Made by a program: the position numbers and the translations under genes
From: a bacterium
GTDB lineage: Bacteria > UBA10199 > 2-02-FULL-50-16 > JAJFLM01
DNA length: 64,000 nucleotides
NCBI GenBank assembly: GCA_965216315.1
Contig: CBDCFN010000016.1
Location: 288,001 to 352,000 of the forward strand
Reading direction: 5' to 3'
Notes under the pieces: model-generated
Databases searched by the model: none
What the model was told of the DNA's origin: nothing
Seen by the model: the letters and a program-made list of their open reading frames with translations, nothing else
In this document: one piece after another, positions 33,393 through 64,000 of the stretch
How the letters are laid out: every line of letters starts with the position of its first letter
How positions within the stretch are numbered: position 1 is the stretch's first letter

Positions 33393-33417
33393 CTTTATTG
33401 AGGACTATAGGTCTGCA

Positions 33418-34047: not shown

Positions 34048-34118
34048 TGCTGAATTCCATGAATTTTCCATTCATCTATCTGTATCGTGGCCGGCAGTGT
34101 GTTTTTATAAATTGATCT

Positions 34119-36486: not shown

Positions 36487-36509
36487 ACGTGGCTTTGGAG
36501 AAAATTAAT

Positions 36510-45799: not shown

Positions 45800-45924
45800 G
45801 TCCCTGTAATTAAAAGAGAAATTAGCAGCCAAAAGACTTGACAGAGGGCCGGATCGTCTTGTAGGTAGGGGTCACTCCAGCCTGTAGCGAAACTTTTTCT
45901 ATAAAAGGACGATAAAGAATACGA

Positions 45925-46983: not shown

Positions 46984-47181
46984 CGGCGATAATGAAAAAG
47001 CTGTTTGGCAGTCAAAACGAGCGCGACCGATTCGCTCACCAAAAGCGCAGCTTCCGGTTCGCTAAAGTCAGGGGGCGAATCTTCTCTCCCCCTGACAACC
47101 CCCATCGTCGGGATAAGTGAAGGGGAGGCTTTTATGCGGCAATAATGAAAAAGTTGTTTGGTAGCCAAAACGAGCGCGACC
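46984..47181 (+). repeat. 45-bp direct duplication of the secA 5' end (46984-47028 and 47137-47181)
   Basis: CGGC[G/A]ATAATGAAAAAG[C/T]TGTTTGG[C/T]AG[T/C]CAAAACGAGCGCGACC; 4 mismatches, offset 153 bp. Confidence 0.9.
47030..47136 (+). repeat. ~107-bp palindromic dispersed element, copy 1
   Basis: Shares AAAGCGCAGCTTCCG, GGGGGCGAA, TCTCCCCCT and CCCCCATCGT in the same order with 59936-60045. Confidence 0.85.
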
Positions 47182-49835: not shown

Positions 49836-49837
49836 CG

Positions 49838-51058
49838 ATGGCAAAGAAAGCAAGATCGCTGGTTGTGCCGGGTTTTCACTTTGCGGGGCTCGCCTGTGGC
49901 ATCAAGCCGAAGCGCAAAAAAGACCTGGCCCTCATTTATTCGGAAGTCCCGGCGACGGTGGTCGGAACTTTCACCCAACATCCGGCAGCCGCGGCGCCGG
50001 TCGTGTTAAGCCGGCGCCACATCCGCAAGGGCATCGCCCAGGCGGTTGTTATCAATAGCGGTAACGCCAATGCCTGTACCGGTGACCGCGGTATGAAAGA
50101 CGCTCGGGTGATGGCCAAAACAACGGCACAGTGTCTGCAAGTCACGTCGTCGCGCGTCCTGGTTTGTTCGACAGGGGTGATCGGCGTGCCTCTTCCCATC
50201 CGGCAAGTTGTTAGCGGGATTAAGCAAGGTGCCGGCCAACTGAAGCCGCAAGCATTAGGGGCCGCTGCTGAAGCGATTATGACGACGGATAAAGGGCCCA
50301 AAAAAACCGGGGCGATCGATCAGGTCGGCCGGCTGCCGTTTCGACTCGTTTCTTTTGCCAAAGGGGCGGGGATGATAGAGCCCCATATGAAATTGGAACG
50401 GCCGCATGCAACCCTGCTGGCCTTCGCGATGACGGATCTCTGTTTAGAGCCGCGATGGGCGGCGCGCGTGCTCAGTGAAGCCGTTGAAGCCTCATTCAAT
50501 TGTATTTCGGTCGATGGCGATACCTCGACCAATGATACCTGCTTGCTACTGGCCAATGGTAAGGCGGGCAATAAGCCACTCAAGCCCGGTACGGCCGGCG
50601 CGCGCCGGTTTGAGCGTCTCCTTGCCGAGCAACTCCAGTACCTCGCCAAGGAAATGGTGGCGGACGGCGAAGGGGCGACGAAGGTCGCGACCATTATCGT
50701 CAAGGGGGCCAAGACCCATAGTCAAGCGCGTCAAATAGCCTATACCATCGCTAATTCGCAGCTCGTGCGGACCTCGTTTTACGGCGCGGATCCCAATTGG
50801 GGCCGCGTTCTTGCCGCTGCCGGCAATTCCGGCGCAACTTGTCGACCCGACAAGGTCGATATTTCTTATGGAAATGTTCGAGTTTGCCGGAAAGGGCTCG
50901 ATGCGGGGCCCGTAGCGGAACGTCGCGCTAAAAAGGTCCTCCAGGCCCAGGAATTCAGCGTGACGATTGACTGCCATCTCGGACAAGGCACCCACCAACT
51001 CCTTTCTAGCGATCTCGGCATTGAATATGTTAAGTTAAATAGCTGTTATAGAAGCTAA
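49838..51058 (+). CDS. argJ: Ornithine acetyltransferase ArgJ
   Basis: [50 protein letters not shown]. Confidence 0.95.
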
Positions 51059-51082
51059 CATTAACATTTTTTTGTCTCGATT

Positions 51083-53218
51083 ATGGCTGATTTGGCAGAA
51101 TCATTGAGCGGCATTAATAAGCTAATCGCTAAGTACAGTGATCTCGTGATTGCGGGACTCGTTGTGGCGGTCTTGGCGATTATTGTCATTCCGCTGCCAA
51201 CTTGGCTCATTGATATCATGATAACCATCAATATCACCGGTGGTGTCATCTTGATGTTGACGGCCCTTTACATCAATAACGCCCTTCAAATCGCGAGTTT
51301 TCCGACCATCTTGCTGATTTCCACCTTGTACCGGCTGTCGATCAATATCGCGACCACGCGTCAGATTCTGGGGACCGGTCAGGCCGGTGAAGTGATCTAT
51401 GCCTTTGGTAATTTCGTGGTCGGGGGCAACTACGTCGTCGGGGGAATACTCTTTGCGATCATTACCTTGGTCAACTTTCTCGTCATTGCCAAAGGTTCGG
51501 AGCGTGTGTCGGAAGTCGGGGCCCGCTTTACCTTGGACGCGATGCCCGGAAAGCAGATGTCTATCGATGCGGATTTGAGGGCGGGCATTATCGATCAGGA
51601 TGACGCGCAGGAACGACGCGCCACCTTGCAGCGTGAATCTCAGATGTACGGGGCTATGGACGGTGCGATGAAGTTCGTTAAAGGGGACGCGATCGCCGGT
51701 ATCGTCATTACCTTCATCAACGTTATCGGTGGCCTCTCCATCGGGGTATTGCAGCGCGGGCTCGAGTTAGGCAATGCGGCCAAACAATATACCTTGCTCT
51801 CGATTGGTGACGGGCTGGTGTCGCAGGTTCCGGCGCTGATTATTTCGGTGTCGGCCGGTATCGTCGTTACGCGTGTCGCCTCGGAAGGTGAGGACGCGAA
51901 TCTCGGCCGCGACATTATCAGCCAGATGACGGCCTACCCGAAGGCCCTGATGATTGGGGCGGGATTGCTCTTTGTGATGGGAATTATCCCGGGCTTGCCG
52001 ACCGTGCCCTTCCTGGTGCTGGCGGCGGCCTTAGGCGCCTTATCGTTCTTCTTGGTGCGCGGCAAGGTGAAGGCCGTGCAGGATGTCATGGAGACACCGA
52101 AGGAAGAGGTTGTTAAGAAAGCGGTCGCGAAACATGGGGATCAGCTCCCTTTTATTATGCCTGCGCCGATCTCGCTGGAAGTCGGTTCCGGTTTGATCCC
52201 TTTTGTCGACGATACGCAGGATGGAGGGCGTTTTATCAATGAATTGATTCCATTGCTGCGGCATGGCCTTTACTATGAATTAGGCGTCAATTTTCCGGGT
52301 ATTCAGGTGCGTGGCCAAAATATTGATATGGAGCCGAATGCCTACGTGATCAACATCAATGAGGTGCCGGTCGCGCATGGTAGCGCGGAAAGTGGTTGCA
52401 TCCTCGTCGGCGAACCGCTGGAACAGCTGTCGTTGTTTAATATTACGGGAAAAGAGACAATTCATCCCATTGATGGATCGGTGGTGACCTGGATTTCCGA
52501 ACAGTACCGTGAAGTCGCGCAGCAGGCCGGCTTTCGAATGTGGGACGTGGCGGAGTATCTCATCCTGCATCTCTCCCATTTACTCCGCAAACATGCCCAT
52601 GAATTCTTAGGCCTCCAGGAAGTGCAGACCTTGCTCAACGAGCTCGAAAAGACGCATCCGGCGCTGATCAAGGAGTTAGTGCCGAAGGTGATTACAATCT
52701 TGCAATTATCAGAAATATTTCAGCGTTTGGTCCAGGAAGACATTTCGATTCGCGATCTCAAAAATATCTTTTCGACGATGGCGCAGTGGGGAGAAATTGA
52801 GCGGGATTCGGTCGCGCTTACCGAACATATTCGCGCGGGTCTCAAGCGTTACGTGACTTATAAGTATGCCGGCCAGACCGCCACGCTGGCCGTGTATCTC
52901 TTGGATCCGAATATCGAGGAAATGATCAAGGCGGCGATACGCAAGACAGATAAAGGCAACTATCTCGCGCTCGAACCGGAGATCATGCAGGAACTCGTGG
53001 AAGCGGTCGGTAAAGAGATCGCCAGTCATCCCATGCCGCCGGCGGCCAAGCCTCCGGTTATCCTAACGATCTCGGAGGTGCGTCGGTACTTCCGTAAGAT
53101 TATCGAGCTCGAATTTCCGCAGCTGTCTGTCCTGTCTTACCAGGAATTATCAGAAAATCTGCGTATTCAGCCGATCGCGCGGATCACCTTGCCAAATCGC
53201 CAGATTCAAGCGGCGTGA
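51083..53218 (+). CDS. sctV: Type III secretion export gate SctV (FHIPEP family)
   Basis: KGSERVSEVGARFTLDAMPGKQMSIDADL, YGAMDGAMKFVKGDAIAG, VLSYQEL. Neighbours are injectisome-type, not flagellar. Confidence 0.9.
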   Translation: MADLAESLSGINKLIAKYSDLVIAGLVVAVLAIIVIPLPTWLIDIMITINITGGVILMLTALYINNALQIASFPTILLISTLYRLSINIATTRQILGTGQAGEVIYAFGNFVVGGNYVVGGILFAIITLVNFLVIAKGSERVSEVGARFTLDAMPGKQMSIDADLRAGIIDQDDAQERRATLQRESQMYGAMDGAMKFVKGDAIAGIVITFINVIGGLSIGVLQRGLELGNAAKQYTLLSIGDGLVSQVPALIISVSAGIVVTRVASEGEDANLGRDIISQMTAYPKALMIGAGLLFVMGIIPGLPTVPFLVLAAALGALSFFLVRGKVKAVQDVMETPKEEVVKKAVAKHGDQLPFIMPAPISLEVGSGLIPFVDDTQDGGRFINELIPLLRHGLYYELGVNFPGIQVRGQNIDMEPNAYVININEVPVAHGSAESGCILVGEPLEQLSLFNITGKETIHPIDGSVVTWISEQYREVAQQAGFRMWDVAEYLILHLSHLLRKHAHEFLGLQEVQTLLNELEKTHPALIKELVPKVITILQLSEIFQRLVQEDISIRDLKNIFSTMAQWGEIERDSVALTEHIRAGLKRYVTYKYAGQTATLAVYLLDPNIEEMIKAAIRKTDKGNYLALEPEIMQELVEAVGKEIASHPMPPAAKPPVILTISEVRRYFRKIIELEFPQLSVLSYQELSENLRIQPIARITLPNRQIQAA

Positions 53219-54277
53219 TTATAGCAATTTAAGTAGGAACCAAATCGACCCGACAAGAATAACCAAGCCAATAACGGCGGCGCCGATTTCGACCGGGCTG
53301 AAACGTTGCCAAAAGGGAGTGGAGGTCTCCGCCATCGGTGCCTCGGGGGGCATTTCAGTGGGCAGCTGGGGAGGCATTTCCGGAGGCATCTCGACCGGCG
53401 CTTCTTCCGGCGGTGGGGCCTCAGGTGCAGGTTTCTCGACAGCCTGTTCCGTGGTTCCGCTGCTATCGGCACGTCGTGCGACCCGGGCGATACTCTCATC
53501 GCCGCTTTCTCGGTTGATGACGGGTGGCGGGGCTTCCGCCCTGGGGGGTGGCGAGGCGGCCAGATAGTCCCAGCCATGTTCCGTGGGATTGCGGTAGAGG
53601 AGGGGCAGCGTCCCGAGTAAGATGCGATCCCCATCACTTAACACGACTTCATTGATTTTTTCGTCGTTGACGAAAACCCCATTTTTGCTGGCGAGATCAA
53701 TGATGCTGACCGTGTCCCATTTTTTGACGATACGGGCATGCTTGCGGGAGATTACCTCAGATTCAATTTGGAACTCACAGGCCGGATCGCGACCGACGAC
53801 GACTTCCTGGGTTTTGCCATCGAGGATGAAGCGTTTGCCTTCATGGCCGCCTCCGACAACTTCCAGTACGGGGGCGTTGTCCTTGTCGACGGCGCGGAGT
53901 AATTTTTTAATCATCTTGATTTCAAGGACGTCCGTGTCGGTAATTTCCCCGAAATCAGGGTTGGTGCTGCCGTTGATGATGAAAACAATTTCGAAATTTT
54001 CAATCTGAATCTTGTCACTGTTACGCAACAACATTTTTTCATGGGCTTGCAGTCGCTGACTATTGACGTAGGTTCCGTTGCCGCTATCAAGATCGACAAT
54101 AAAAAAACTCCCGTTTTCAAAACGGATCTCAGCATGATTGCGGGACACGCTTTTGGAAGGGAGGACGATGAAATTGGAGCGGTCACGGCCGATTACAATC
54201 GACTCCTGGTCCATGCGGTAAGAATTTTTTTGACCGCTATCGCGGTCCTTAACGGCAATGGAAGGGTGGATGTCCAT
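53219..54277 (-). CDS. Double-FHA protein with Pro/Glu linker and C-terminal TM anchor
   Basis: Two GR...SR.HA...DL.S.NG FHA motifs; hydrophobic C-terminus. Confidence 0.88.
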   Translation of the reverse strand: MDIHPSIAVKDRDSGQKNSYRMDQESIVIGRDRSNFIVLPSKSVSRNHAEIRFENGSFFIVDLDSGNGTYVNSQRLQAHEKMLLRNSDKIQIENFEIVFIINGSTNPDFGEITDTDVLEIKMIKKLLRAVDKDNAPVLEVVGGGHEGKRFILDGKTQEVVVGRDPACEFQIESEVISRKHARIVKKWDTVSIIDLASKNGVFVNDEKINEVVLSDGDRILLGTLPLLYRNPTEHGWDYLAASPPPRAEAPPPVINRESGDESIARVARRADSSGTTEQAVEKPAPEAPPPEEAPVEMPPEMPPQLPTEMPPEAPMAETSTPFWQRFSPVEIGAAVIGLVILVGSIWFLLKLL

Positions 54278-54280
54278 GGC

Positions 54281-55522
54281 TTAGCAGCCTCCATTGGAGT
54301 CAGCCATATTCTTGGCGATCTGGGCCTCACGTGGAAAACGCTGCGCACCGCTTTTGACGAAGGGGCATAGGTATTGATTGGCTTTTTTGCGATTGCCTAA
54401 TTTGTTGTGGAGACTGCCGAGATTGTAGAGGGCCTGCGGGTGCTGGGGTTCGAGATCGAGTGCGGCTTCCATCCCTTTAATTGCTTGTTGGGGGTTGTCT
54501 TCTTTCAGGTAGGTCATGGCCTTATTGAAGGCCGCATCCGCATACGTCGGTTTGAGTTTGAGCGCCTTGTCAAAGGCCTCGCGTGCTTTAGAGTATTTTT
54601 TGAGGGCGTAGTAGGCATAGCCGAGGTTGAAGAAACCACGCGGATTTTTCTTGTCCAGTTGGGTGGCATGTTTGAAGGCCCCGAGTGCATCCATCGGGCG
54701 CCGATTTTTCAGATAAGATTCGCCGAGTTTTAGGAAGGTTGAACTGTCGTTGGTGTTCATCTTGAGAGCCCGGACAAAACTGGCCCGGGCGCGTTCCGGA
54801 TCACCTTTTTGCAAGTAGACGTTTCCCATCTTGATCCAGGGCTCGGCTGCATTCGGCCGAGTCTCCGTCGCCAAACGGAAGCGTATGAGGGCCTCTTCCC
54901 AACGTCCGAGTTGGTGGTAGATGTCGCCGAGCCGTAAATGCCCGTGATAGAGTTTGGCATCAATAGCAGTAGCTTCTTTCATGTGCTTGGCGGCTTTTTG
55001 TAGATAAGAGGTTGGGTCTTCGGCCTTGTCGGCGCGGCGCAGATCGACAATGGCGAGGTTGTAGTGGGCATCGGCAAATTTCTCATCGATATCGATCGCT
55101 TTGTTGAGATAGCTTTCGGCGCGACCGTAATCGCCTTTGTCCATATAAGTCGTGCCAAGATGGTTGTAGGAAGTCGCCCATTTTTTATCGGCTTTGATCG
55201 CTTGTTCGAAATAAGCGATCGCCTGCTCGAGATTGCCCTGGTATTTGTACACGAGACCCAGATTGCTCAGTGCTTCCGGATAATTGGGGCTGGCCTCGAC
55301 CGCGGTCTTGAACTCAAGTTCCGCTTCTTTGAATTTGCGTTCCTCTAAATAACGCACACCACGGTTATTGTGGTAGATCGCAATCTTGGGGGGGATGTTT
55401 TCGCGCTGCGGTTCGGCGACGGCACCTCCGCCAAACGATCCAAAACAACCGTTTAGGTTAATTGTCCAGACAGTTATGATAATGCCGACCACGATAAACG
55501 AATGCTTCATAAGCCTCACCAT
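54281..55522 (-). CDS. TPR-repeat lipoprotein
   Basis: Signal peptide with LNGC lipobox and roughly ten TPRs. Confidence 0.85.
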   Translation of the reverse strand: MVRLMKHSFIVVGIIITVWTINLNGCFGSFGGGAVAEPQRENIPPKIAIYHNNRGVRYLEERKFKEAELEFKTAVEASPNYPEALSNLGLVYKYQGNLEQAIAYFEQAIKADKKWATSYNHLGTTYMDKGDYGRAESYLNKAIDIDEKFADAHYNLAIVDLRRADKAEDPTSYLQKAAKHMKEATAIDAKLYHGHLRLGDIYHQLGRWEEALIRFRLATETRPNAAEPWIKMGNVYLQKGDPERARASFVRALKMNTNDSSTFLKLGESYLKNRRPMDALGAFKHATQLDKKNPRGFFNLGYAYYALKKYSKAREAFDKALKLKPTYADAAFNKAMTYLKEDNPQQAIKGMEAALDLEPQHPQALYNLGSLHNKLGNRKKANQYLCPFVKSGAQRFPREAQIAKNMADSNGGC

Positions 55523-55523
55523 T

Positions 55524-56567
55524 TTACTGACAATTTGTAAGCGAAGGAAGCGACGATGTATCGCCCTTTCCCAGCTGTTGCATCAATTTAAGGGATGAAA
55601 CGTCTCCAGGCAAGGCTTTCAAAGCCTCTTCGAGCTGTTGGGCCGCAGCCGCGCTGTCGCCTTTTTCTAAGCGATCCGCGGCGGAGGTTTGGAGGGCATC
55701 CGCTTCGAGGTATTGCGTGACGCGCCGGCCCCAGTGTTTGCCGATAATCGGACAGAGCAGCAGCATTTTGGTCAACTCACGTTCGGCTTGTTGGAAATAA
55801 TTCTTATAGTCACGGCCTTCAACTTTTGCCATGAAACCGATTTCCGCGAGGGTTTGCGCCAGCCCGAGATAGGCGTAGCAATAGTTGAAATCATTTTTGA
55901 TCGCTTCCTCGTAAAAACCGCGCGCTTTGAGAATATGTGCTTCCGTTCCTTTAGCATCGGCAATTTGCCCCAGCACCCAGAAATTCATTGCCGTTAAGTT
56001 GCGAACCCGGTTTTCGGTTCCCATGAGCACTTTTTTGTCGACGCGGACTTTTTTGAATGCCTTGCTGGCGCGGCGCGCGAGGTGAATGAAGAGTTCGGAG
56101 AGTTTTTTAGGGCTGGGCCAAGCAATAACTTCTTCTTCAATCGGCACCTGTTTTTTTGCGCTGACATCGACGAAACGCGTGAAGATTTCCAGCTTGTCCG
56201 TTTTTTTGTGATACTGGCCGGCAATGACATAATCGGCGTTGGCCGTTTTACCGAGTTGGATCGCTTCATTTAGGTCAAAAGTTGTTTCCGCACTTCGTTT
56301 TTCGATGACCTTGGTGTTCTTCGTTGATTCGAGCGCCAAGAAAAGTCCTAGACGCAGTGCGTCTGAAAGCCATTGGAGGTTGGGATCGTTTGTTTCGTTG
56401 ATATACGGCAAGATTAATATACGTTTATCTTTAGGGGAGGCCGCAAAGACCTTGCGATTAGCCTCGAAGATGGCAGGCCAGTTGTAACACGTGCGTGCCG
56501 GGGCTTGGCGGGGGCTAAGCATCACAACGAGGGCAAAACACGCTATAATGAAAACGGTGGGTTTCAT
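55524..56567 (-). CDS. Secreted TolB-N/FlgO/CsgG-like domain + TPR protein
   Basis: Signal peptide from ATG 56567; ILPYINET...WLSDAL...ADYVIAGQY...RFVDV, then TPR-like helices. Confidence 0.65.
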   Translation of the reverse strand: MKPTVFIIACFALVVMLSPRQAPARTCYNWPAIFEANRKVFAASPKDKRILILPYINETNDPNLQWLSDALRLGLFLALESTKNTKVIEKRSAETTFDLNEAIQLGKTANADYVIAGQYHKKTDKLEIFTRFVDVSAKKQVPIEEEVIAWPSPKKLSELFIHLARRASKAFKKVRVDKKVLMGTENRVRNLTAMNFWVLGQIADAKGTEAHILKARGFYEEAIKNDFNYCYAYLGLAQTLAEIGFMAKVEGRDYKNYFQQAERELTKMLLLCPIIGKHWGRRVTQYLEADALQTSAADRLEKGDSAAAAQQLEEALKALPGDVSSLKLMQQLGKGDTSSLPSLTNCQ

Positions 56568-56718
56568 GAATGTCGGCAATCTTACGCACATTCGACTGCG
56601 TTTGAAAACCGCTAAGTGTTTGAGAACGTTAAGGAACTGTGTTAAATGAAATAAGGTGAGGAATCTCACTCTACCCTAATAGCCCCTCATCTGAAATTTA
56701 AGGTTATTGAGAATATTT

Positions 56719-58869
56719 ATGGCGGATCCAAAGGACAAGACGACTGTAGAAGTAGAAGAGAATACCGAAATACGTGAAATCGGTGCCCTCGATGCCGCCG
56801 TCTTTCCTTGTTTGCGTGTCGTCGCCGGTCCGGGGCGCGGGGCTATTTATCCATTGCAGCCGGGGACCAACCTCGTGGGTCGTAGCGATATGGCCCACGT
56901 CATGCTCGATGACTCATCGATCTCACGTAATCATGCCGAGCTTGATGTGCGTGAAGAAGGGGCCCTCGTGCGTGACCTGGACAGTCGCAATGGAACACAG
57001 GTGCAGGGGGTTGCGATCACAAGTGACACCCCCATTATGCATGGGCAGCGCCTCAAGGTCGGGATCTATGATTTTCAATATTTGACGGAGGAGGCCGAGA
57101 TGCCGGCGGAAGATGAACCGCCGCAACCGCCACCGGAATCTGCTACGGAGGCGGCGGGTGCTGAAACCGTTGTTGAGGATGACGCTCCGACGGTTGATGA
57201 AGCGCCGCCCGAGGAAATGCCGCCGCAAGAAGAGGTGCCTGCGGAGGTGCCGCCCGAAATGCCGCCCGAAGTTCCTCCTGAGGCAACGGAACAACCGCCG
57301 GTGCCCGAAGCCGCGGCGGAGGCGCCGCCGAAGCCACCCGGCAAACTCGGTCCCTTGCTCGCGGTCTTTAAACGGATTCCGCGACGTTGGTATTTTATCA
57401 GTGTCGGTCTCTTGGTCGTCGCCGCGCTTGCTTATGGAGCGGTTTCCTACTTTACGGGTGGGCCGAGTGGCCCGCCGGAAATTCCCACCAAGCCGATCAC
57501 GACCCCGGACCCGCAAGCGATTCCGAGCGACGTTAAACTGGCGGTGCCGGAATACGTCCCGGTCTTTCTCGATTTTTCGGCGGCGCCGATTAGTGCGGAA
57601 GTCTTTTTTGGCGATGAGTCGGTGGGACGGACCCCGTTTCGCATGAGCGCCCATCTCAAGTACGGCAAGACGTATGAAGTCAAAGCCAAGTTCCGCCTCG
57701 AAGAGATCGACGAAGTCGTTGAACAAAAACAACGCATCGCTTTGGGTAAGGATCAGCAGGTGATTCCCGTCAATTTCGCCGGCGAGATTGGGCATATGAA
57801 AATCAAAGCCTTGCCGCGCGGGATAGACCTTTATTTAGAAGCCTTCTTTGCAAGCGATCCGCACCAGGCCAAGCCGATCAAATTTAACGAAGTGATCTTT
57901 GGTAAGCCGATTTACTTGCCCTTCGGTCGCTATGTGATGGAACTACGTCAAAGTCGTAAGTTGAGTGCGTCCAAGACCTTTATCAACGAAGTCGTGTATC
58001 GCCGTGAGTTTGTGATTGATAAGGATCAAGGCGTCTACGAAGTCGAGGTCAAAGCGGCGGAGCTCAGCGTGTTTCCGGCCAAGATCAATACGGTCCCGCC
58101 GGAGGCGACGTTAATCGTCGATGGCAAGGAGTTGGGGCCCACGCCCTTTGAGGGCGATCTGGCGGTCGGAAGTCATAAGCTGATGATTCGCAAGGAAGGG
58201 TATTTTCCGCACGAGCAGGAGATACGCGTTGATCTGAATACGCCCTTTGAGGCCGACATTGCCCTTAAGACATCGGAGGCGGGTCAGCGCATCAATGAGG
58301 CGCGGATCAAGATTCGACAACGTCGCTATAAAGAAGCGATTAATCTCTTGATCAACGCACTCAAAGAGAACCCGACGACTAAAGAGGTTGCGGAAACGCA
58401 TTACTTGATTGGGCAGGCGAATGTTTTCCTGAAAAACTATCCTGATGCGCGCGATTATTTCATTCAAGCGATGCGGCACCAGGAGTATCGCTATCCGGCG
58501 CGCCTCGGAATTGCTCAGCTTCATTACGCCCAGGGAGAACGGGTTAAGGCCTTGCAGATACTAACGGAGGTCCTGATCTCGGCGAAACGCAAGGATCTGC
58601 GTTCGGATGCGGGCAAATTGTTTCAGCAGATCTCTCCCTTCAAATCAGTTCTTTATGTCATGACCGAGCCGGAAGGGGCCGACGTGATCGTGAATGACAA
58701 AAAAGTTGCGGTCAAGACACCGCTCTTACTCCATGACTTGCTGGTGGGGGCCTATCGACTTTATTTTAGCCTGCCGGGTTATGAGCCCCACCATGTCAAA
58801 GTGGATATCGGGGTTTCCGAGTTCAAGCCGGTTACCGTGAAATTGCAGCCGATTAAACTGGCCGAGTAG
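56719..58869 (+). CDS. FHA - Pro/Glu linker - TM - PEGA/TPR protein
   Basis: VGR...ISRNHA...DLDSRNGT. A TM helix, several PEGA-like units (T.P..A.++VDG..+G.TP) and TPRs follow. Confidence 0.85.
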   Translation: MADPKDKTTVEVEENTEIREIGALDAAVFPCLRVVAGPGRGAIYPLQPGTNLVGRSDMAHVMLDDSSISRNHAELDVREEGALVRDLDSRNGTQVQGVAITSDTPIMHGQRLKVGIYDFQYLTEEAEMPAEDEPPQPPPESATEAAGAETVVEDDAPTVDEAPPEEMPPQEEVPAEVPPEMPPEVPPEATEQPPVPEAAAEAPPKPPGKLGPLLAVFKRIPRRWYFISVGLLVVAALAYGAVSYFTGGPSGPPEIPTKPITTPDPQAIPSDVKLAVPEYVPVFLDFSAAPISAEVFFGDESVGRTPFRMSAHLKYGKTYEVKAKFRLEEIDEVVEQKQRIALGKDQQVIPVNFAGEIGHMKIKALPRGIDLYLEAFFASDPHQAKPIKFNEVIFGKPIYLPFGRYVMELRQSRKLSASKTFINEVVYRREFVIDKDQGVYEVEVKAAELSVFPAKINTVPPEATLIVDGKELGPTPFEGDLAVGSHKLMIRKEGYFPHEQEIRVDLNTPFEADIALKTSEAGQRINEARIKIRQRRYKEAINLLINALKENPTTKEVAETHYLIGQANVFLKNYPDARDYFIQAMRHQEYRYPARLGIAQLHYAQGERVKALQILTEVLISAKRKDLRSDAGKLFQQISPFKSVLYVMTEPEGADVIVNDKKVAVKTPLLLHDLLVGAYRLYFSLPGYEPHHVKVDIGVSEFKPVTVKLQPIKLAE

Positions 58870-58934
58870 GGCGCGGCACCCGTCCTCCGAAGTAGCTCTG
58901 CTACGGAGGGTGGAAGTAGCGCCGCTACTTGCGC
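58866..58934. repeat. Nested REP-like palindromes
   Basis: GTAGGGCGC...GCGCCGCTAC encloses CCTCCG-AA-GTAGC-TCT-GCTAC-GGAGG. Confidence 0.5.
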
Positions 58935-59019
58935 AAGTGGCGTAAAATTGTTAAAATTTTCAAAACGTTATACGTGTTTGCCCGGATAACGGCTTGAATC
59001 AGTATTGAGGAGGTCCTTT

Positions 59020-59358
59020 TTGCCCAGAGACACGCAGACCCAAGATCAGGCGGCGCCGGAGCCGTTTCGCCCCCGCTATCCGGCTATTGAAAAGTTGGTT
59101 GATTCTGAGGACTTTGATGCCCTCAATCACAATTATGGCCAGGCCTATGACGAATTGGAAAAGCTGGCCAAGCAAAAAGGGGTGGGTGGATCGCGTGATT
59201 CCAAAAAGGCCATGAAGGCCCTCGAACTAGTGATGGATCTGCTGAAGTATCTCCTGAAGCTGAAGTACGAATATTTGGCTTCTATAGAGGGTGGGGATCA
59301 AAGTCCCCAAAAAAATCTTTCTGGAGACACGCAACTCCAGGGAGAGCGGGTGCGATAA
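59020..59358 (+). CDS. Small helical hypothetical protein in the T3SS cluster
   Basis: TTG start after GAGGAGG. Confidence 0.65.
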   Translation: MPRDTQTQDQAAPEPFRPRYPAIEKLVDSEDFDALNHNYGQAYDELEKLAKQKGVGGSRDSKKAMKALELVMDLLKYLLKLKYEYLASIEGGDQSPQKNLSGDTQLQGERVR

Positions 59359-59384
59359 TTTTGGTGAAAGGATAGAAGACCCAG

Positions 59385-59936
59385 ATGACATTAGCCGCAA
59401 TTGAACCCAAAGCCCTTCGCGTTCAGACAGGAGCCCCCTCGACCCCCAAAGGTCCGGGTTTCTCTGAAATCATGTCGGCTTTGGCGCCTGCGGCGGCTGA
59501 AAGCACTGGGCTCGCGACGAATAATGCGAATGCGGCTTCCCTGACGCACGCAGCGCTTACGGGCGCGGCAGTGGCGGCGGGTCCTCAAACGGGGGCCTAC
59601 GGTGGGACTTATGGGATGAGTACGCAGTCTCCTTTCTCTTCCGCCGGATACGGCGTTCCCGACAGCCTCGGGACCGGTTATTCGAGTGGAACTTACGCCG
59701 CGGGTGGCTCCACCGGCGGTTTCGGCGCAGCTATTGGCGGGGGCTCAGGCCTTCCGACCGATCCCTTCATGCAGCAGGATTATCTACTCAATAAAATGCG
59801 TGATACCAACATGCAGATGATCCAGATTCAGGCCTCGATTCAGCACGAAAACCGGCGCTGGACGACCAATTCAAATATCTTAAAGGCAAAACACGATACG
59901 GAAATGGCTCAAGTGCGGAACTTCCGGGTCACCTAA
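59385..59936 (+). CDS. T3SS needle/filament subunit-like (SctF-like) protein with Gly/Ala/Ser-rich N-terminus
   Basis: C-terminal amphipathic helix QIQASIQHENRRWTTNSNILKAKHDTEMAQVRNFR; lies next to a TPR chaperone and sctJ. Confidence 0.55.
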   Translation: MTLAAIEPKALRVQTGAPSTPKGPGFSEIMSALAPAAAESTGLATNNANAASLTHAALTGAAVAAGPQTGAYGGTYGMSTQSPFSSAGYGVPDSLGTGYSSGTYAAGGSTGGFGAAIGGGSGLPTDPFMQQDYLLNKMRDTNMQMIQIQASIQHENRRWTTNSNILKAKHDTEMAQVRNFRVT

Positions 59937-60045
59937 TTCGTGAACCGAAAGCGCAGCTTCCGCTTCACTCTAGTCAAGGGGGCGAAAACTTTCTCCCCCT
60001 TAACAATCCCCCATCGTGGGGTCTCTTAAGGAGGAAGCCTGTATG
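59936..60045 (+). repeat. ~107-bp palindromic dispersed element, copy 2
   Basis: Homologous to 47030-47136; ends in SD AAGGAGG plus ATG. Confidence 0.85.
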
Positions 60046-60459
60046 GTCCCGATGGAAAACGACGATCTCATCGTCATGATGGAGGCGGGTTACGTCTACC
60101 TTGGCATGCAGAAGTTCAAGGAGGCCAAGGCCGTCTTTGAAGGGGCCGCCGTGCTCGCGCCGGAAAGCGAGGTTCCACTCGTAGCGCTCGGAAGTGTCTT
60201 CTTTGCCCAGGAGAAATTTGACCAGGCGATCAGCTGGTATAAGAAGGCGCTCAAGAAGAATCCCAATAGTCCCTTCGCCAAGTCCTATTATGGGGAGGCC
60301 CTCATCTTTAAGGGCAAAAAGGACGAGGCCCTCGTTGCCTTGAATGAGGCGATTCAGATGGACCCGAAGGGCCAGTCCGGGATCTTTGCGCAGGCCCTGG
60401 TCGAGGCGGTCAAGGAAGGTTTTGTTCCCCCCAGTCGTGCCGGAGGGGCTGCGCCGTGA
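60043..60459 (+). CDS. Small TPR protein, T3SS chaperone-like (SycD/YscG type)
   Basis: Three TPRs, small size, between the needle-like gene and sctJ. Confidence 0.7.
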   Translation: MVPMENDDLIVMMEAGYVYLGMQKFKEAKAVFEGAAVLAPESEVPLVALGSVFFAQEKFDQAISWYKKALKKNPNSPFAKSYYGEALIFKGKKDEALVALNEAIQMDPKGQSGIFAQALVEAVKEGFVPPSRAGGAAP

Positions 60460-61463
60460 CGCGTTTGACTCGGCATGCTGTCGTCTTAGTATTGGCCTTG
60501 AGCCTTTGTGCCTGTGGTGAAGTCGTCTTGCACCAAAATCTCAACCAGATCGACGCGGACAAGATACTCGTTCTGTTGGACAAAAATGGGATTGAGGCCC
60601 ATACCGAAGCCGGGACCGACGGACAGGAGACGACCTGGTCGGTGCTGGTCTCCAAATCGGACGTCTCGATGGCGCGCCGGCTCCTTGTCGAAAACAATTT
60701 GCCCGCCCGCCCCGAATTAGGACTCTCCGGGGTCTATAGTGAAAAAGGACTGATCCCCACGCCAGATGAACAGCGGGCCCGTTTTCTGCTGGCGATGAAG
60801 GGGGAGGTCGTGAACGCGTTGCGCAAGATTCCCGGGGTCCATGAGGTCGGCGTCGTGCTGAATGTCCCGCAAGAATCCGAGTTGGCCTTGGGACAGATCG
60901 ATCAGGTCAAACCGTCGGCATCGGTTGTTCTCCGGGTGGCGGATCCGGCGATGCTCCACCAGGAGTTGACCGAAGAAAAGGTCAAACGCTTCGTCGCGAA
61001 TTCGATCAAGAATCTGGAGCCCAACAACGTCATTGTCATTATTAGTTCCGAGAAGAAAGATACGACGCAGCTCGGTGGGACCGTGTCGGCGCCGGGCGCC
61101 TTGCCGCCGCCCCCGCGTAATCCCCCCCCACCGTCGCCCGAAGGCGGACCGAGTTCGGATCTTGGTTCCGAGTCGGGGACCGCGGGCGGCGAGATCGTGA
61201 CGGTGGCGGGAATCGAGCTGGATGCGGCCTCCGTGGGCAAATTCCGTTTTTATCTGATTATCTTTTTATGCGTCTTGATTCTCCTCTCGGCGGCGTTGCT
61301 GTTGACGCTGTTCCGTTTTAGTCGGATGCGGCGCAAGGCCAAGCCGCGGCGGCTCGAGGCCGTGCCGATTGAGGGGCAACAAGGAGGGCCGGATTTGCTC
61401 CAGAGCGGCCAGGGAGCCATGGGAGTGGGTCCTGGACCCGGTGAAACGGGGACCGGTGCCTAA
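60456..61463 (+). CDS. sctJ: T3SS inner-membrane ring lipoprotein SctJ
   Basis: LCAC lipobox, LHQNL...A..I...L, GLIPTPDEQRAR, IPGV...V.LN.P, PSASV, FVANSI..L, C-terminal TM. Confidence 0.9.
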   Translation: MTRLTRHAVVLVLALSLCACGEVVLHQNLNQIDADKILVLLDKNGIEAHTEAGTDGQETTWSVLVSKSDVSMARRLLVENNLPARPELGLSGVYSEKGLIPTPDEQRARFLLAMKGEVVNALRKIPGVHEVGVVLNVPQESELALGQIDQVKPSASVVLRVADPAMLHQELTEEKVKRFVANSIKNLEPNNVIVIISSEKKDTTQLGGTVSAPGALPPPPRNPPPPSPEGGPSSDLGSESGTAGGEIVTVAGIELDAASVGKFRFYLIIFLCVLILLSAALLLTLFRFSRMRRKAKPRRLEAVPIEGQQGGPDLLQSGQGAMGVGPGPGETGTGA

Positions 61464-61488
61464 GCCCTGCGGCAGGCTCAGGGCAAGC
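61464..61488. repeat. Short REP-like palindrome
   Basis: GCCCTG-CGGCAGGCT-CAGGGC-AAGC right after the sctJ stop. Confidence 0.45.
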
Positions 61489-61540
61489 AACTGGAACGGT
61501 TTGAAGAGGCGATAATAGCTATAAGAGGTAGTATATTGTT

Positions 61541-61996
61541 ATGACTGCAGGTTTAAATGGCGTCAATCCCAGCATTATGCGGACCGAGGTCCGCTTTGTG
61601 GATCCGACCCGCCCGAAAATAAAGAAGATTGGTGCCGGCGCCAAGTTTGCGAGCGCCTTAGGGAGTTTTTTGGGACCGGTCGCCTCGATTGCCGGTATTT
61701 TCTTTCCACCGGCCTTTGCGATTGGCGCGGCGGCCTACGGAATGAAGGGGCTGGCCCAGCAGTCGATCATGCGGCAACAGGCGGCCAACGCGCAGCAGCA
61801 AGCGTCCTACCAGGCGCAACAGGGGCAGCAAACGATCTCTTTTATGGGCTATGAAGGCGGGCAGGCGCCGATTCGACCCGCGGCGGGCGGGGGACTGATG
61901 GGCCACCGGCCTCCGCAAGCGGATCCGATGATGGATATCCTCTTTATGCGGCAGGAGGCGACGCAACAGATGATTAATACCGATTATAGACGGTAG
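61541..61996 (+). CDS. Hypothetical T3SS-cluster protein with a hydrophobic hairpin (translocator-like)
   Basis: FASALGSFLGPVASIAGIFFPPAFAIGAAAYG followed by a Gln-rich coil; no signal peptide. Confidence 0.55.
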   Translation: MTAGLNGVNPSIMRTEVRFVDPTRPKIKKIGAGAKFASALGSFLGPVASIAGIFFPPAFAIGAAAYGMKGLAQQSIMRQQAANAQQQASYQAQQGQQTISFMGYEGGQAPIRPAAGGGLMGHRPPQADPMMDILFMRQEATQQMINTDYRR

Positions 61997-62009
61997 CGAA
62001 AGGGAATGT

Positions 62010-62369
62010 ATGGGGGTGCATCGACTCGATTCAAATAAAGTTCAACGTTCGCGCGCCGCGGATCCAGCGGCCGATTCCGCGACAAGCGGCGCAGGAACGG
62101 CCAAGGGCCCCGCGGAAGTATTGCCGTTTCCTTTTACGGAGATGCTGACGGTCGCGGGTTTTCGGGTCCCGACCCAATGGCAAGCGCACCCACAATTAGC
62201 GCAACTCCGCCAGAATGCGGAACATACCGCCGGTTTGGACCTTTCCTCGTTTCCACCGGAGATTCAGGAGGATATCCGCACGATGCTCGAATTTGCCGAG
62301 TCCCCGACCTTTAAGCGGCAGATGCAGGCCCTGTTGGATATTGACGTCCCTGACAACGATTCGGCGTAG
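62010..62369 (+). CDS. Hypothetical protein
   Basis: 119 aa ORF after an AAGGGA SD, in operon order. Confidence 0.6.
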   Translation: MGVHRLDSNKVQRSRAADPAADSATSGAGTAKGPAEVLPFPFTEMLTVAGFRVPTQWQAHPQLAQLRQNAEHTAGLDLSSFPPEIQEDIRTMLEFAESPTFKRQMQALLDIDVPDNDSA

Positions 62370-62529
62370 CGTCAGAACGTTCGAATCGCCCCAAAATGAG
62401 GTCTCCAGGCCCCATTTTGAAACCCTCTGGCGCATTGCGTTACCGAAAAGCTGTTTGCCAATTTTCGAAAAAACTCAGTATTGACAATGACTTAGAAGTG
62501 TTGTGGAAGGTTGGGAACAGTTGCCCGCT

Positions 62530-62546
62530 TTGGCACAAATACTGCA
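62530..62546 (+). promoter_or_regulatory. Sigma54 (-24/-12) promoter candidate
   Basis: TTGGCAC-AAATA-CTGCA, with correct GG/GC spacing, upstream of the sigma factor gene. Confidence 0.65.
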
Positions 62547-62582
62547 TCTTCATCCTGTACGAAGCGAAGGAGTCAAAATCGG

Positions 62583-63410
62583 ATGAGTTCAAAAGCTGTG
62601 AAAAAAGTTGCCAAAAAGAAGAGTCCCCCCGCCAAGCAGAAGAAAGACGAGCGCCGTCATTCGGAGACACGGGATCGTCTGATCAAGCAGTATCTTCCCT
62701 ATGCGGCGTCGATCGCGGGACGCGTGATGCAGATGTTATCGTCGGCAGTCGATTACGACGATGTCATGTGTTATGCGCGTTTAGGCCTGCTTGAAGCCGC
62801 CGAACGCTTTGATCCCAGCATGAACGTCGATTTTAAGACCTTTGCGTACTACCGTATCAAGGGCGCGATCTATGACGGGCTCCGCAAGAGCGGTTGGGTC
62901 CCCCGCGCTCTTTACGCCAAGATCAAGTTTGAGCAGGCGTCCAATAATTATCTTGAGTTTGTTTCTTCCAAGCGTTCGCTCGACGGCGATGAAGACCAAA
63001 AGGCCGCCGAGGTCTATGACACAGTTAACTCCCTCGCTTCAATTTACGTGATCTCGATCGATGCCTCGGAAGAGCCGATGGAGATTGAAGATACCAATGC
63101 CAAGAGCTCCGAGCAGCTCGCCCAGTTTCAACAGCTCAAGGGGCACATGAAGGCCTCGATTGAACTCCTCCCGGCCAAGGAACGCAAGCTGATCAAAATG
63201 TATTATTTCCAGAACAAGACCCTCGAAGAGGCGGGAGCTGAATTAGGTCTGTCGAAGAGTTGGACCTCGCGACTCCACGCCCGGGCCCTCGAAATGCTTT
63301 TCAAGAAGGTGAATGCCCGCATTCATCACTCGCACGGGGCGCAAGCGCCTGCGCAGCCGGACGAAGACACCCCTGATCTGCCGCAATTGCAGCAAGGAGG
63401 CACGCGGTGA
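62583..63410 (+). CDS. FliA/WhiG-family RNA polymerase sigma factor
   Basis: GLLEAAERFDP...FKTFAYYRIKGAIYDGLRK (region 2) and MYYFQNKTLEEAGAELGLSKSWTSRLH (region 4). Start taken at ATG 62583. Confidence 0.9.
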   Translation: MSSKAVKKVAKKKSPPAKQKKDERRHSETRDRLIKQYLPYAASIAGRVMQMLSSAVDYDDVMCYARLGLLEAAERFDPSMNVDFKTFAYYRIKGAIYDGLRKSGWVPRALYAKIKFEQASNNYLEFVSSKRSLDGDEDQKAAEVYDTVNSLASIYVISIDASEEPMEIEDTNAKSSEQLAQFQQLKGHMKASIELLPAKERKLIKMYYFQNKTLEEAGAELGLSKSWTSRLHARALEMLFKKVNARIHHSHGAQAPAQPDEDTPDLPQLQQGGTR

Positions 63411-63895
63411 GCATCGAAGCGAAAGTCGCTCAAACCGCGACCAAGGTCGCGACCGAAGTTGCCAAGCAAGGGGGCCAAAATCCGCTTCAAACCGGCGAAT
63501 CTCAGTTTATGAACGTGCTGCAGCAGCACGAAATCAAGATGGAAGCGTCCAGCAATGACATTATGTCGATGTTGGGGCAAGATGCCAGCCTCCATCCGGC
63601 CGATAACGCTGTTTCGGCCGATGGCCTCCAAATCCAGATTTCCGACGTCCAAAAGTTGGAATCTGTCGAATCATCCAACAAACTCGGCAATATGTTTGAA
63701 AACCTCAATCGTGATGGGCTCAATATGGAGCGCATTCAGGAGATGGTGATGTCTGGTGAGAAGATGAGTAATCGCGAATTGATGGCAATGCAGGCGATGA
63801 TTCACCAGTCAGCCCTTGAAATCCAGATTGGGGTTCAGGCGATGGACGCCGGGAAGTCCTCGATCCAAACGCTGGTACAAAGGACAACGCAATAG
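63407..63895 (+). CDS. T3SS inner rod SctI-like protein
   Basis: C-terminal ELMAMQAMIHQSALEIQI...KSSIQTLVQ resembles the YscI/HrpB2 C-terminus; supported by context. Confidence 0.55.
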   Translation: MSIEAKVAQTATKVATEVAKQGGQNPLQTGESQFMNVLQQHEIKMEASSNDIMSMLGQDASLHPADNAVSADGLQIQISDVQKLESVESSNKLGNMFENLNRDGLNMERIQEMVMSGEKMSNRELMAMQAMIHQSALEIQIGVQAMDAGKSSIQTLVQRTTQ

Positions 63896-63907
63896 TATAA
63901 CTACAAT

Positions 63908-64000
63908 ATGAATGAAGAATTGGCCACCTCAGGCAAGGTCATGGCGGCCTTAGCCATCTTGGAGGGGGAAAGGGATCCGGCGGCACTGTTTCGCTTTGCG
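63908..64000 (+). CDS. Partial ORF continuing beyond the window
   Basis: ATG at 63908, MNEELATSGKVMAALAILEG..., open to the window end. Confidence 0.55.
   Translation, partial: MNEELATSGKVMAALAILEGERDPAALFRFA

Follow-up and report, generated by a model that had tools for sequence, protein, structure and literature searches.

A candidate basal type III secretion system combining injectisome-type and flagellum-type parts in a small-genome bacterial phylum

Type III secretion systems (T3SSs) of a basal, secretin-less kind are already known. In the sections of the literature on which we draw, Myxococcales systems are described as basal and as lacking a secretin, SctF and FliG (PMC3459982), and the T3SS* of Myxococcus xanthus (MXAN_2434-2464) as comprising SctD/J/I/Q/RSTUV/N/L together with LcrH chaperones, while lacking a translocon, a needle and any part in the outer membrane (PMC10433427, PMC12075869). 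In those sections T3SS* is also described as gathering at sites of contact with prey (PMC12075869), and FliO as occurring in Myxococcota non-flagellar systems (PMC12403147).

We analysed a window of 64,000 bp from a bacterium of the UBA10199 lineage (contig CBDCFN010000016.1, here C16, positions 288001-352000; genome of 2.96 Mb in 16 contigs, 98.3% complete). Positions 51083-64000 of the window make up the upstream third of an island of ~38 kb on the chromosome, which extends from C16:339083 to about 376500, ~24 kb beyond the window end; the G+C content of this stretch (0.51-0.59) is like that of the DNA around it. Four DNA sequencing runs, all from one study, contain the stretch, and no RNA run is listed for it. 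We propose, with a probability of roughly 0.62, that the island encodes a functional basal non-flagellar T3SS in which injectisome-type SctV, SctJ and SctI and SctF-like parts are joined to flagellum-type FliG, FliM, FliN and FliO, with flagellum-style transcription and no dedicated outer-membrane channel. As far as the cited accounts describe the T3SS*/Myxo group, the island resembles it in being basal, in having no secretin and no recognised translocon, and in encoding SctJ/I/Q/RSTUV/N/L, LcrH-type TPR chaperones and FliO. The hosts differ: the system described here is nearly universal in a separate small-genome lineage (93 species genomes, 1.1-4.6 Mb).

Export core, cytoplasmic complex and phylogenetic position

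We first consider SctV. The protein scored 806 against NCBIfam SctV TIGR01399 (cut-off 692), which it passes, and 698 against FlhA TIGR01398 (cut-off 772), which it misses. The genome has no other FHIPEP gene. We scanned species-representative genomes and obtained 80 named loci with flagellar FlhA or non-flagellar SctV. In a tree of 86 sequences (IQ-TREE quick search, LG+G4), flagellar (54) and non-flagellar (32) sequences were separated with a Shimodaira-Hasegawa-like approximate likelihood ratio test (SH-aLRT) support of 100. The window SctV and six close homologs formed a clade (7 rows, support 100) among Myxococcota-labelled rows, outside a 17-row crown clade (support 98-99) of Chlamydiota, Verrucomicrobiota/Lentisphaerota, Desulfovibrionaceae and Pseudomonadota. 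A second tree (47 rows, site-heterogeneous posterior mean site frequency model, quick search) gave the same picture, with a four-way polytomy at the base and a crown support of 99. Within the basal polytomy, the sister relation of the window clade to locus L016 plus Archangium had an SH-aLRT support of 68. The trees place the system as basal in the non-flagellar clade, outside all secretin-bearing families and beside the Myxococcota T3SS* type. An initial annotation, made from the letters of the window, had suggested a deep-branching non-flagellar T3SS, and this agrees with both the cut-offs and the trees: SctV neither falls inside FlhA nor belongs to a standard secretin-bearing family. That annotation had also proposed a Bdellovibrionota-like organism; close homologs carry no NCBI label beyond 'Deltaproteobacteria bacterium'.

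The remaining core genes are single-copy, with SctN, SctR, SctS, SctT, SctU, SctJ and SctQ each present once. SctN scores above the cut-offs of SctN and of FliI_clade2, SctR above its curated cut-off and FliJ above its NCBIfam cut-off, and SctS gave a best-family match under its cut-off. SctJ scored 115 bits against TIGR02544 and just 38 against FliF; it has a lipobox, a C-terminal transmembrane segment (residues 257-291) and a cytoplasmic tail of ~44 residues. SctU, the product of the only SctU/FlhB gene in the genome, is unlinked (C16:805005-806087) and scored 357.1 against the SctU equivalog (cut-off 358) and 328.8 against FlhB (cut-off 349). Its neighbours (C16:803014-806087, locus L008) are another PEGA Ser/Thr kinase, an FHA-GGDEF protein and an OmpA-family protein.

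Directly downstream of the window, the island continues with a FliG_C-positive protein, SctL/FliH, SctN/FliI, a YscO/FliJ-type protein and a FliK/SctP-type protein (Flg_hook), then a FliM-domain protein, a FliN/SctQ-C protein, a FliO-domain protein, SctR, SctS and SctT. After SctT come five large proteins without Pfam families (717, 491, 460, about 611-624 and 601 residues). At the far end lie two TPR chaperone-like proteins and two genes of opposite strand, one for a sigma-54 activator with an FHA domain and the other for a Ser/Thr kinase that carries five PEGA domains. By sequence, the export apparatus is complete (SctV and SctR/S/T in the island, SctU elsewhere) and is accompanied by an SctL/N/O ATPase complex and a FliK/SctP-like protein of length-control type, and the cytoplasmic complex is flagellum-style, with a three-domain FliG homolog in the SctK position and FliM-like, FliN-like and FliO proteins. 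Features of 51083-64000, called from a listing of open reading frames (ORFs) with Pfam and NCBIfam scans, are as follows.

51083-53218, + strand: SctV export gate, 711 residues; PF00771 787.6 bits; directly after secA and argJ
53219-54277, - strand: tail-anchored cytoplasmic protein with two FHA domains (2xFHA), 352 residues; FHA 144 bits in two stretches
54281-55522, - strand: periplasmic TPR lipoprotein, 413 residues; TPR_2 173.7 bits; signal peptide ends in the lipobox ...NLNGC
55524-56591, - strand: exported TPR-type protein, about 355-381 residues; accessory, variable
56707-58869, + strand: protein with FHA domain, transmembrane helix, PEGA and TPR regions (FHA-PEGA-TPR), 720 residues; candidate SctD analogue; PEGA 84 bits, FHA 55 bits
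59005-59358, + strand: small helical protein, 117 residues, in the YscE position; candidate co-chaperone without Pfam match
59331-59358, + strand: sigma-28-type promoter GCAACT-N16-GCGATAA, 26 nt upstream of the F-like gene
59385-59936, + strand: F-like protein, 183 residues; candidate SctF-type needle or pilus subunit by remote homology
60016-60459, + strand: small TPR chaperone, 147 residues, in the YscG/CdsG position; TPR_2 62 bits
60456-61463, + strand: SctJ inner-membrane ring lipoprotein, 335 residues; PF01514 82 bits
61487-61515, + strand: sigma-28-type promoter GCAACT-N16-GCGATAA, upstream of the 151-residue gene
61541-61996, + strand: conserved protein, 151 residues, with a Gly-rich hydrophobic segment and without Pfam match
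62010-62369, + strand: fast-evolving protein, 119 residues, directly upstream of the sigma gene
62531-62546, + strand: sigma-54-type promoter TGGCAC-N5-CTGCA, 37 nt upstream of the likely sigma-gene start
62583-63410, + strand: FliA/WhiG-like (sigma-28-type) sigma factor; Sigma70_r2 and r4
63407-63895, + strand: SctI-like (inner rod/FliE-like) protein, 162 residues, by remote homology
63908-64000, + strand: 5' end of a FliG homolog, 336 residues when whole (L002:1908-2918), running off the window

All of the genes named in the initial annotation lie where it put them. It covered the first third of the system and missed the FliG homolog, the FliM-like and FliO-like proteins and both promoter types; of the components that it proposed to look for downstream, SctN and SctR/S/T were found there and SctU elsewhere on the contig, and SctC was not found in the island.

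On an Archangium contig, we found SctJ, a 482-residue FliG_C-positive protein (37 bits), SctL, SctN, SctO, SctP, a FliM-FliN fusion, FliO, SctR, SctS, SctT, SctU, two TPR proteins and SctV in this order, with orthologs of the 2xFHA protein and of the TPR protein on the opposite strand. From this synteny, FHA/TPR neighbours of SctV and a FliG-like gene are therefore common to both lineages, and the island shares with Myxococcota loci its basal position, its lack of a secretin and its gene order. The two arrangements also differ. The sigma gene, the E-F-G genes and SctJ lie inside the island, whereas E-F-G and sigma form a separate mini-cluster in Archangium; SctU is unlinked here but follows SctT in the Archangium locus; and the FHA-PEGA-TPR protein is matched in Archangium through its FHA domain alone.

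The FliG homolog passes the Pfam FliG_C cut-off (29.3 versus 23.3). We compared a family profile of nine sequences, two Archangium proteins included, with PDB sequences: the top 14 matches were all FliG, the best being Thermotoga FliG (E 6.4e-11, middle and C-terminal domains), and no SctK chain was matched at E <= 1. No NCBIfam FliG model matched the protein at E <= 1e-5. An AlphaFold (AF2) model was all-helical, with a mean predicted local distance difference test (pLDDT) score of 81.8, and its top 13 Foldseek matches were FliG over 190-370 columns, with modest E values of 2.4e-3 to 0.2. The gene lies between SctJ and SctL, which is the place of SctK in injectisomes; according to the part of a preprint on which we draw, Pfam puts the SctK families in the FliG clan. 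From the profiles and the model, we regard the protein as still a FliG, at a stage before divergence into SctK. It may dock to the cytoplasmic tail of SctJ, in the way of FliG on FliF, or to the FHA domains, in the way of SctK on SctD. In the profile alignment, the K-D-E stretch of Thermotoga FliG is faced by an R-R-R consensus of the family, at columns that we take to be the charged torque-generating ridge of FliG, and there is no MotA-family gene near the island. The initial annotation had stated that there were no motor genes in the window. This needs qualification: the FliG homolog starts at 63908 and is followed by FliM-like and FliN-like genes. The three MotA/ExbB-family genes of the genome are all far from the island.

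To place the system in its phylum we used 93 species genomes, which represent one class, 24 families and 73 genera. An FHIPEP match at E <= 1e-50 was found in 91 of them, mostly 70-91% identical to the window SctV; two genomes (G021, G041) had no FHIPEP match, one (G087) had matches of 39-41% identity alone, and a few had fragments or split genes. Flagellin was detected in 11 of the 93, and these genomes also have another FHIPEP (35-44% identity), which is often encoded on the same contig as flagellin. In ten relatives sampled over 25-40 kb, gene order was colinear from SctV to SctT and beyond in six, while two had the SctV-plus-FHA module alone at that place and two SctV alone. The FHA/TPR/PEGA accessory genes and the FliA-like sigma gene, both of which the initial annotation had picked out, are kept in six of these ten relatives and partly in Archangium. 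Orthologs of the 2xFHA protein (beside SctV) and of the TPR lipoprotein were each found in Archangium and in eight of ten relatives, and the FHA-PEGA-TPR protein was likewise matched in eight. The order secA-argJ-sctV (window 47145-53218) is conserved in several families of the phylum, and argJ and sctV are just 24 nt apart; hence, SctV may be co-transcribed with housekeeping genes, separately from the rest of the system.

These data bear on whether the island could be what decay has left of a former flagellum, or else a flagellar export core that now serves something different, such as nanotubes or 'hat'-type structures. The parts that would fit such an origin are the flagellar-type FliG, FliM, FliN, FliO and FliA-like genes, together with the FliI_clade2 and FliJ cut-offs that are passed. 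The likeness to a flagellum extends to the middle and C-terminal domains of FliG, to FliJ- and FliK-type domains, to a sigma-54 activator with matching promoters and to the gene order G-H-I-J-K-M-N-O-P-Q-R. However, no gene is broken, SctV identity is 70-91% over the 24 families of the phylum, and flagellated members have the system alongside flagellin and a further FHIPEP of 35-44% identity. By score SctV misses the FlhA cut-off, and in the trees it belongs with non-flagellar systems, so that it is not FlhA on either count; SctJ replaces FliF, and SctJ and an SctI-like protein stand in place of FliF and rod; no stator is linked. The whole 98.3%-complete genome gave no match to Flg_bb_rod, Flg_bbr_C or Flagellin_N (FliE was not itself searched), although the same searches were positive in E. 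coli, Bacillus, Caulobacter and Thermotoga. The absence of rod and hook genes from the window had been recorded in the initial annotation, and for rod and flagellin it thus extends genome-wide. We consider a flagellar remnant scarcely tenable and already largely refuted.

Filament candidate, membrane proteins and the outer membrane

The candidate needle or pilus subunit is the 183-residue F-like protein. Its N-terminal part is rich in Gly, Ala and Ser, and its C-terminal helical region, which ends in ...NFRVT, is conserved. The top match of the protein in the ESM Atlas (0.91; 188 of 256 features) was a Myxococcota cluster with T3SS_needle_F in 11% of its members, and the next matches were HrpA, MxiH/YscF and HrpE clusters at 0.81-0.82. 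Alignment with hhalign to a PF09392-positive Lentisphaeria protein gave P 2.6e-4 with a profile of 7 sequences and P 1e-4 with one of 73. At that Lentisphaeria locus (L014), the needle gene (PF09392, 29.3 bits) is followed by a YscG-like TPR gene and then by SctJ, the F-G-J order seen in the island. The best PDB match of the 73-sequence profile was a 43-residue chain of 7y6c (E 2.2e-4), an entry labelled with the name of a needle co-chaperone family; MxiH (E 0.52-1.2) and PrgI (E 1.2-1.5) were also matched, and all of these alignments ran C-terminus to C-terminus. The order of the 117-residue, 183-residue, 147-residue TPR and SctJ genes mirrors what we take to be the YscE-F-G...J order.

The F-like family is large, with 1516 representative clusters at E <= 1e-3. 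It occurs in all five Myxococcota-labelled genomes examined, with one weak copy inside the Archangium T3SS contig; the strong Myxococcota copies lie in a mini-cluster of an E-like gene, an F-like gene, a TPR chaperone gene and a sigma factor gene whose product is 41-44% identical to that of the window.

Both small neighbours of the F-like gene are conserved. The 117-residue protein is kept in 6/6 colinear relatives, and its counterpart adjoins the F-like gene at an Archangium locus (L133). The 147-residue TPR protein, 47-59% identical in relatives, has weak matches to LcrH_SycD (40.9), CdsG (32.5) and SctY (33.3), all under their cut-offs. Prediction of a complex between this protein and residues 118-183 of the F-like protein gave weak support (0.51, versus 0.00 for the best of three controls), with runs agreeing in at least 61% of contacts and a partner pLDDT of at least 53. 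The pass mark used was reached by 116 of 157 solved complexes and by 2 of 215 mismatched pairs, and the passes at scores of 0.60 or less comprise 18 of the 157 together with both mismatches. YscG-YscF-type complexes have been solved; hence, the pass may reflect structures memorised by the predictor.

The 162-residue protein encoded upstream of the FliG homolog is a candidate inner-rod subunit. The top PDB match of its family profile was MxiI, the Shigella inner rod (E 0.16, C-terminus to C-terminus), and four of six orthologs matched PF17001 (T3SS_basalb_I) at E 7e-4 to 0.01, under the cut-off. The window copy itself had no Pfam match. The needle-like and inner-rod-like labels of the initial annotation thus find no Pfam family behind them in the window copies, and hold as SctF-like (183 residues) and SctI-like (162 residues) on remote evidence. 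We also asked whether the F-like and I-like families are related to each other; the hhalign probability was 0.5, and we discarded the idea.

The 720-residue protein bears on the inner ring. An AF2 model built from eight sequences (pLDDT 72.8) has an FHA domain at 33-126, a disordered linker, one transmembrane helix at 226-249, three beta-sandwich (PEGA-like) domains at 283-519, a TPR region at 524-642 and a last beta-sandwich domain. The protein scored 39 against SctD TIGR02500 (cut-off 86), and its modelled periplasmic part of beta-sandwich and TPR domains is without the canonical SctD ring domains. Foldseek placed its FHA fold nearest to phosphothreonine-binding FHA domains, first that of Bdellovibrio DgcB (E 2e-8) and then GarA and OdhI; Chlamydia trachomatis CT664 (3gqs) ranked 23 and YscD 37. 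Residues G58, R59, S73, R74, H76, N95 and G96 are invariant in the eight sequences, and we take these G-R, S-R-x-H and N-G positions to be phosphothreonine-binding residues. DgcB is an FHA-GGDEF protein, and a protein of this kind also adjoins SctU here (L008). The model puts the 720-residue protein in the inner membrane with a cytoplasmic FHA domain, in a topology like that of SctD but with a periplasmic part unlike it.

The second membrane-anchored FHA protein, encoded beside SctV, has a Pro-rich linker, a C-terminal hydrophobic anchor (residues 325-352) and GR...SR(N/K)H...NG motifs visible in its sequence. Judged by domain content, two membrane-anchored FHA proteins stand in place of a canonical SctD. 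The chlamydial T3SS, with FHA domains on CdsD and with its CdsE/F/G needle chaperones, is similar in having FHA domains on inner-membrane components, in the weak CdsG-family match and in the spread of export genes over several loci; however, it has a secretin and belongs to the crown clade, and the FHA proteins here are without ring-building periplasmic domains. The protein encoded at 55524-56591 has a conserved Cys after its signal peptide and another near its C-terminus. Its ESM Atlas (language-model) look-alikes are TPR proteins (score 0.96), tblastn matched it in four of ten relatives, and sequences from five relatives were aligned. Labels of TolB_N (E 0.045) and FlgO (E 0.094) for this protein were not significant, and we rejected the TolB-N label. 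The initial annotation had supposed that TPR/PEGA/TolB-like proteins replace or supplement the outer ring. We found no support for this in the 720-residue protein, which from its SctD-like topology at the inner membrane is not an obvious outer ring, nor in a TolB-like label.

No dedicated secretin (SctC) was found in the island, and the window holds no secretin gene, as initially noted. The only secretin-family genes of the genome, at C16:974670 and C16:16707, both lie outside the window and encode a 988-residue GspD-type secretin inside a type II secretion system (T2SS) GspC-D-E-F cluster and an orphan 253-residue secretin-like protein among housekeeping genes. By tblastn, no secretin was found in the loci of any of the ten sampled relatives or in Myxococcota loci, whereas the same query was positive in six crown-family loci. 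A standard eukaryote-aimed injectisome could in principle borrow the GspD-type secretin or the orphan protein: secretin-family genes occur here, 89 of the 93 phylum genomes have them elsewhere, and SctU is already unlinked. Scattered T3SS loci are also known in Chlamydiales, according to the part of the account we cite (PMC3459982). But the large secretin belongs to a GspC-D-E-F operon and the small one to a housekeeping neighbourhood, SctV lies outside all secretin-bearing families, the model has no canonical SctD ring domains, and no recognisable translocon or tip protein was detected. A borrowed secretin is, in our view, improbable.

A different alternative is that the same machine serves delivery at the inner membrane alone, to the periplasm or for envelope building, with neither a surface filament nor cell-to-cell delivery. 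There is no linked secretin, recognisable translocon or tip protein, the F-like protein has no Pfam needle match, and the TPR, PEGA and lipoprotein partners in the periplasm could serve as a dock there. In the sections cited, Abby and Rocha (2012) argue for delivery of this inner-membrane type by Myxococcales systems (PMC3459982), so the same case has been made for the Myxo group. However, a conserved SctF-like C-terminus, chaperone-type neighbours and a dedicated late-type promoter are hard to explain without a polymer, and five large signal-less proteins lie behind promoters of the same types. We regard delivery restricted to the inner membrane as unlikely, though the strongest of the alternatives considered here, and prefer a machine that builds an SctF-like filament.

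Promoters, phosphorylation module and candidate cargo

The island sigma factor had TIGR02479 as its best NCBIfam match (133; cut-off 189.6). Its gene probably starts at 62583, which is Met25 of the ORF at 62511, and an overlapping ORF (62396-62794) is probably spurious. The protein is 54-68% identical at the same position in 6/6 colinear relatives, and tblastn found no paralog in the genome. The motif GCAACT-N-CGATAA was found at 57 genome sites, versus 0-7 in 10 shuffles; nearly all sites are just upstream of ORF starts, with a spacing of 15 (30 sites) or 17 (19 sites). We take the -10 half of the motif to be the GCCGATAA of sigma-28, and the pairing of these sites, with their GCCGATAA-type -10 element, with the island sigma factor is putative. 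The -35 element, GCAACT, is unlike the TAAA of enteric FliA. Sites in the island lie upstream of the F-like, 151-residue, 717-residue, 491-residue and 601-residue genes; the site before the F-like gene is kept in four of six colinear relatives, and sites after SctT recur as well.

A sigma-54-type pattern was found at 107 genome sites, versus 8-17 in shuffles. Three lie in the island, before the sigma gene, the 460-residue gene and the 611-624-residue gene, and the first of these is at the same position in three of six colinear relatives. At the far end of the island, the FHA sigma-54 activator (65-76% identical), the five-PEGA kinase and the two TPR proteins are present in five of the six. In polar flagellates such as Vibrio, Pseudomonas and Campylobacter, a FliG/FliM/FliN C-ring goes together with a hierarchy of sigma-54 followed by sigma-28.

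Control by threonine phosphorylation is known from the Pseudomonas H1 type VI secretion system (H1-T6SS), with PpkA, Fha1 and PppA, and FHA-domain sigma-54 activators are known from Myxococcus. The island is similar in combining a membrane Ser/Thr kinase that has periplasmic domains, FHA domains with canonical phosphothreonine residues and a PP2C phosphatase near a secretion system; the H1-T6SS is a different secretion system, and the kinase-FHA pairing here is putative. The PP2C phosphatase and an M23 peptidase are encoded at window 45038-46929, just upstream of secA, with the PP2C gene 5 kb upstream of SctV. A PP2C gene adjoins SctV in a Polyangiaceae locus (L039).

From this arrangement we suggest the following scheme. 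The PEGA Ser/Thr kinase would sense something in the envelope and phosphorylate targets. These would be recognised by FHA domains of canonical appearance, both in the membrane proteins and in the sigma-54 activator. The activator would then fire sigma-54 promoters, among them the one before the FliA-like sigma gene, a gene that heads the structural run from the SctI-like gene to SctT. In turn, the FliA-like sigma factor would fire GCAACT-N15/17-CGATAA promoters for the SctF-like filament subunit, presumably held by E/G-type chaperones, and for the large signal-less proteins encoded after SctT, which are likely exported cargo. The machine would probably be used in contact with other cells, for predation or attachment; the initial annotation had likewise thought of predation or host contact.

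Among the candidate cargo, the 717-residue and 611-624-residue proteins had no Pfam family and no meaningful PDB sequence match. The proteins of about 611-624 and 601 residues (L002:16297, L002:18233) and a 130-residue protein (C16:1468133) have a common N-terminal motif, M(D/E)L(Y/C)L(F/S)...IV...G.F (MDLxLFDN...), and all three are encoded behind sigma-28-type or sigma-54-type promoters. We do not treat this motif as a secretion signal because just three copies were found. The 611-624-residue and 601-residue proteins also have a common C-terminal domain that recurs downstream of SctT in relatives. Elsewhere, sigma-28-type sites on contigs C15 and C16 (for example C16:2164725-2185677) precede genes for lipoproteins, large secreted proteins and paralog arrays, including a run of genes starting MGCDLYGASNL... 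and an 860-residue protein starting MMRINSNIGTQNAQ; this is a sizeable regulon for a non-flagellated organism.

Two small proteins encoded upstream of the sigma gene have no assigned role. An ORF at the position of the 151-residue gene was aligned from 6/6 colinear relatives. The 119-residue gene likewise has an ORF at its position in all six, with an identity of just 12-19%; given this low identity and nothing else in support, we dropped the idea of a FlgM-like anti-sigma factor.

Outside the T3SS island, window 32001-37000 has a low G+C content (0.38-0.40, versus ~0.55 in its flanks) and holds two unknown ORFs, a gene for a 696-residue protein that combines DUF4365 (endonuclease-like) with TPR, and one for a small HTH_3 regulator. 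The stretch has the look of acquired DNA and may be a defence island.

Weighing the proposal and its meaning

Several observations weigh against a functional basal T3SS of the kind proposed. The case comes from sequence and models. The SctF-like assignment is a remote one, drawn from C-terminal-helix homology together with chaperone and gene context: neither the window F-like protein nor six orthologs had a Pfam match (E <= 1 for the small proteins of the window), so the PF09392 cut-off was not reached; the 7-sequence profile found nothing among PDB sequences; and just 2 of 149 family representatives had weak needle or pilin matches, one of them to PF09392 at E 2.9e-4, under the cut-off. Several core proteins fall below the NCBI curated cut-offs (SctJ 115 versus 162, SctQ 83 versus 101, SctT 135 versus 163, sigma factor 133 versus 190). 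In the trees, which come from quick searches, the base of the non-flagellar clade is a polytomy, seven rows have deviant composition and two have long branches. The island is split in four of the ten sampled relatives. The SctV match is in two adjacent pieces in three genomes, G024 (C18), G037 (C56) and G060 (C1:1812749-1814834), one of them with an in-frame TAG; a frameshift, an assembly error or gene decay may account for these. The cascade from kinase and FHA domains to sigma-54 and sigma-28 is a proposal from domain content and motif positions. Finally, no Tad or type IV pilus ATPase was found in the genome. A single T2SS-E-type ATPase was detectable, so that neither a type IV nor a Tad pilus is indicated, and the Kil-pilus partnership of Myxococcus therefore cannot apply here.

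Nevertheless, use of the machine in contact with other cells is suggested by its near-universal retention in a small-genome phylum and, by analogy, by the Myxococcus precedent. What we consider new is the host lineage and the near-universality of the system there, the SctF-like family with its chaperones, the sigma-54/sigma-28 promoter architecture and the Ser/Thr kinase-FHA module. A FliG homolog recognisable at the sequence level, also in Archangium, is new as well and runs contrary to the 2012 description, as given in the sections of it that we cite. In a literature search of incomplete coverage that excluded supplements, we found no report of a T3SS in this lineage, of a FliG homolog in Myxo-type systems or of a sigma-28-linked needle-like gene.

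A bolder reading, which we offer as tentative and somewhat doubtful, is that the island represents an extant stage between flagellum and injectisome: a non-motile machine with a FliG-FliM-FliN ring, FliO and a hierarchy of sigma-54 followed by sigma-28. The late sigma-28 class would comprise an unrecognised, divergent needle or pilus family and the exported cargo; since that family is found in Myxococcota too, their 'needleless' systems may not be needleless. Ser/Thr phosphorylation and FHA domains would gate assembly or firing, and the machine would be the defining, nearly universal organelle of a contact-living phylum.

The origin of the injectisome from the flagellum has been inferred mainly from trees and from reduced Myxococcales systems described as being without FliG and a needle. 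The basal systems represented by this island and the Archangium locus have retained a recognisable FliG at the place of SctK, as well as FliO and a FliM-like protein. A FliA-like sigma factor is also retained in them, with ties to a gene of filament type, and they encode a large unannotated family with an SctF-like C-terminus. They would make steps of the transition testable, from FliG to SctK and from flagellin-class to needle-class regulation. The sigma-28-type regulon of ~57 promoters is a ready list of candidate cargo and surface proteins. In an uncultured phylum with genomes of 1-4.6 Mb, this machine is conserved more tightly than flagella, which points to a contact-dependent lifestyle.

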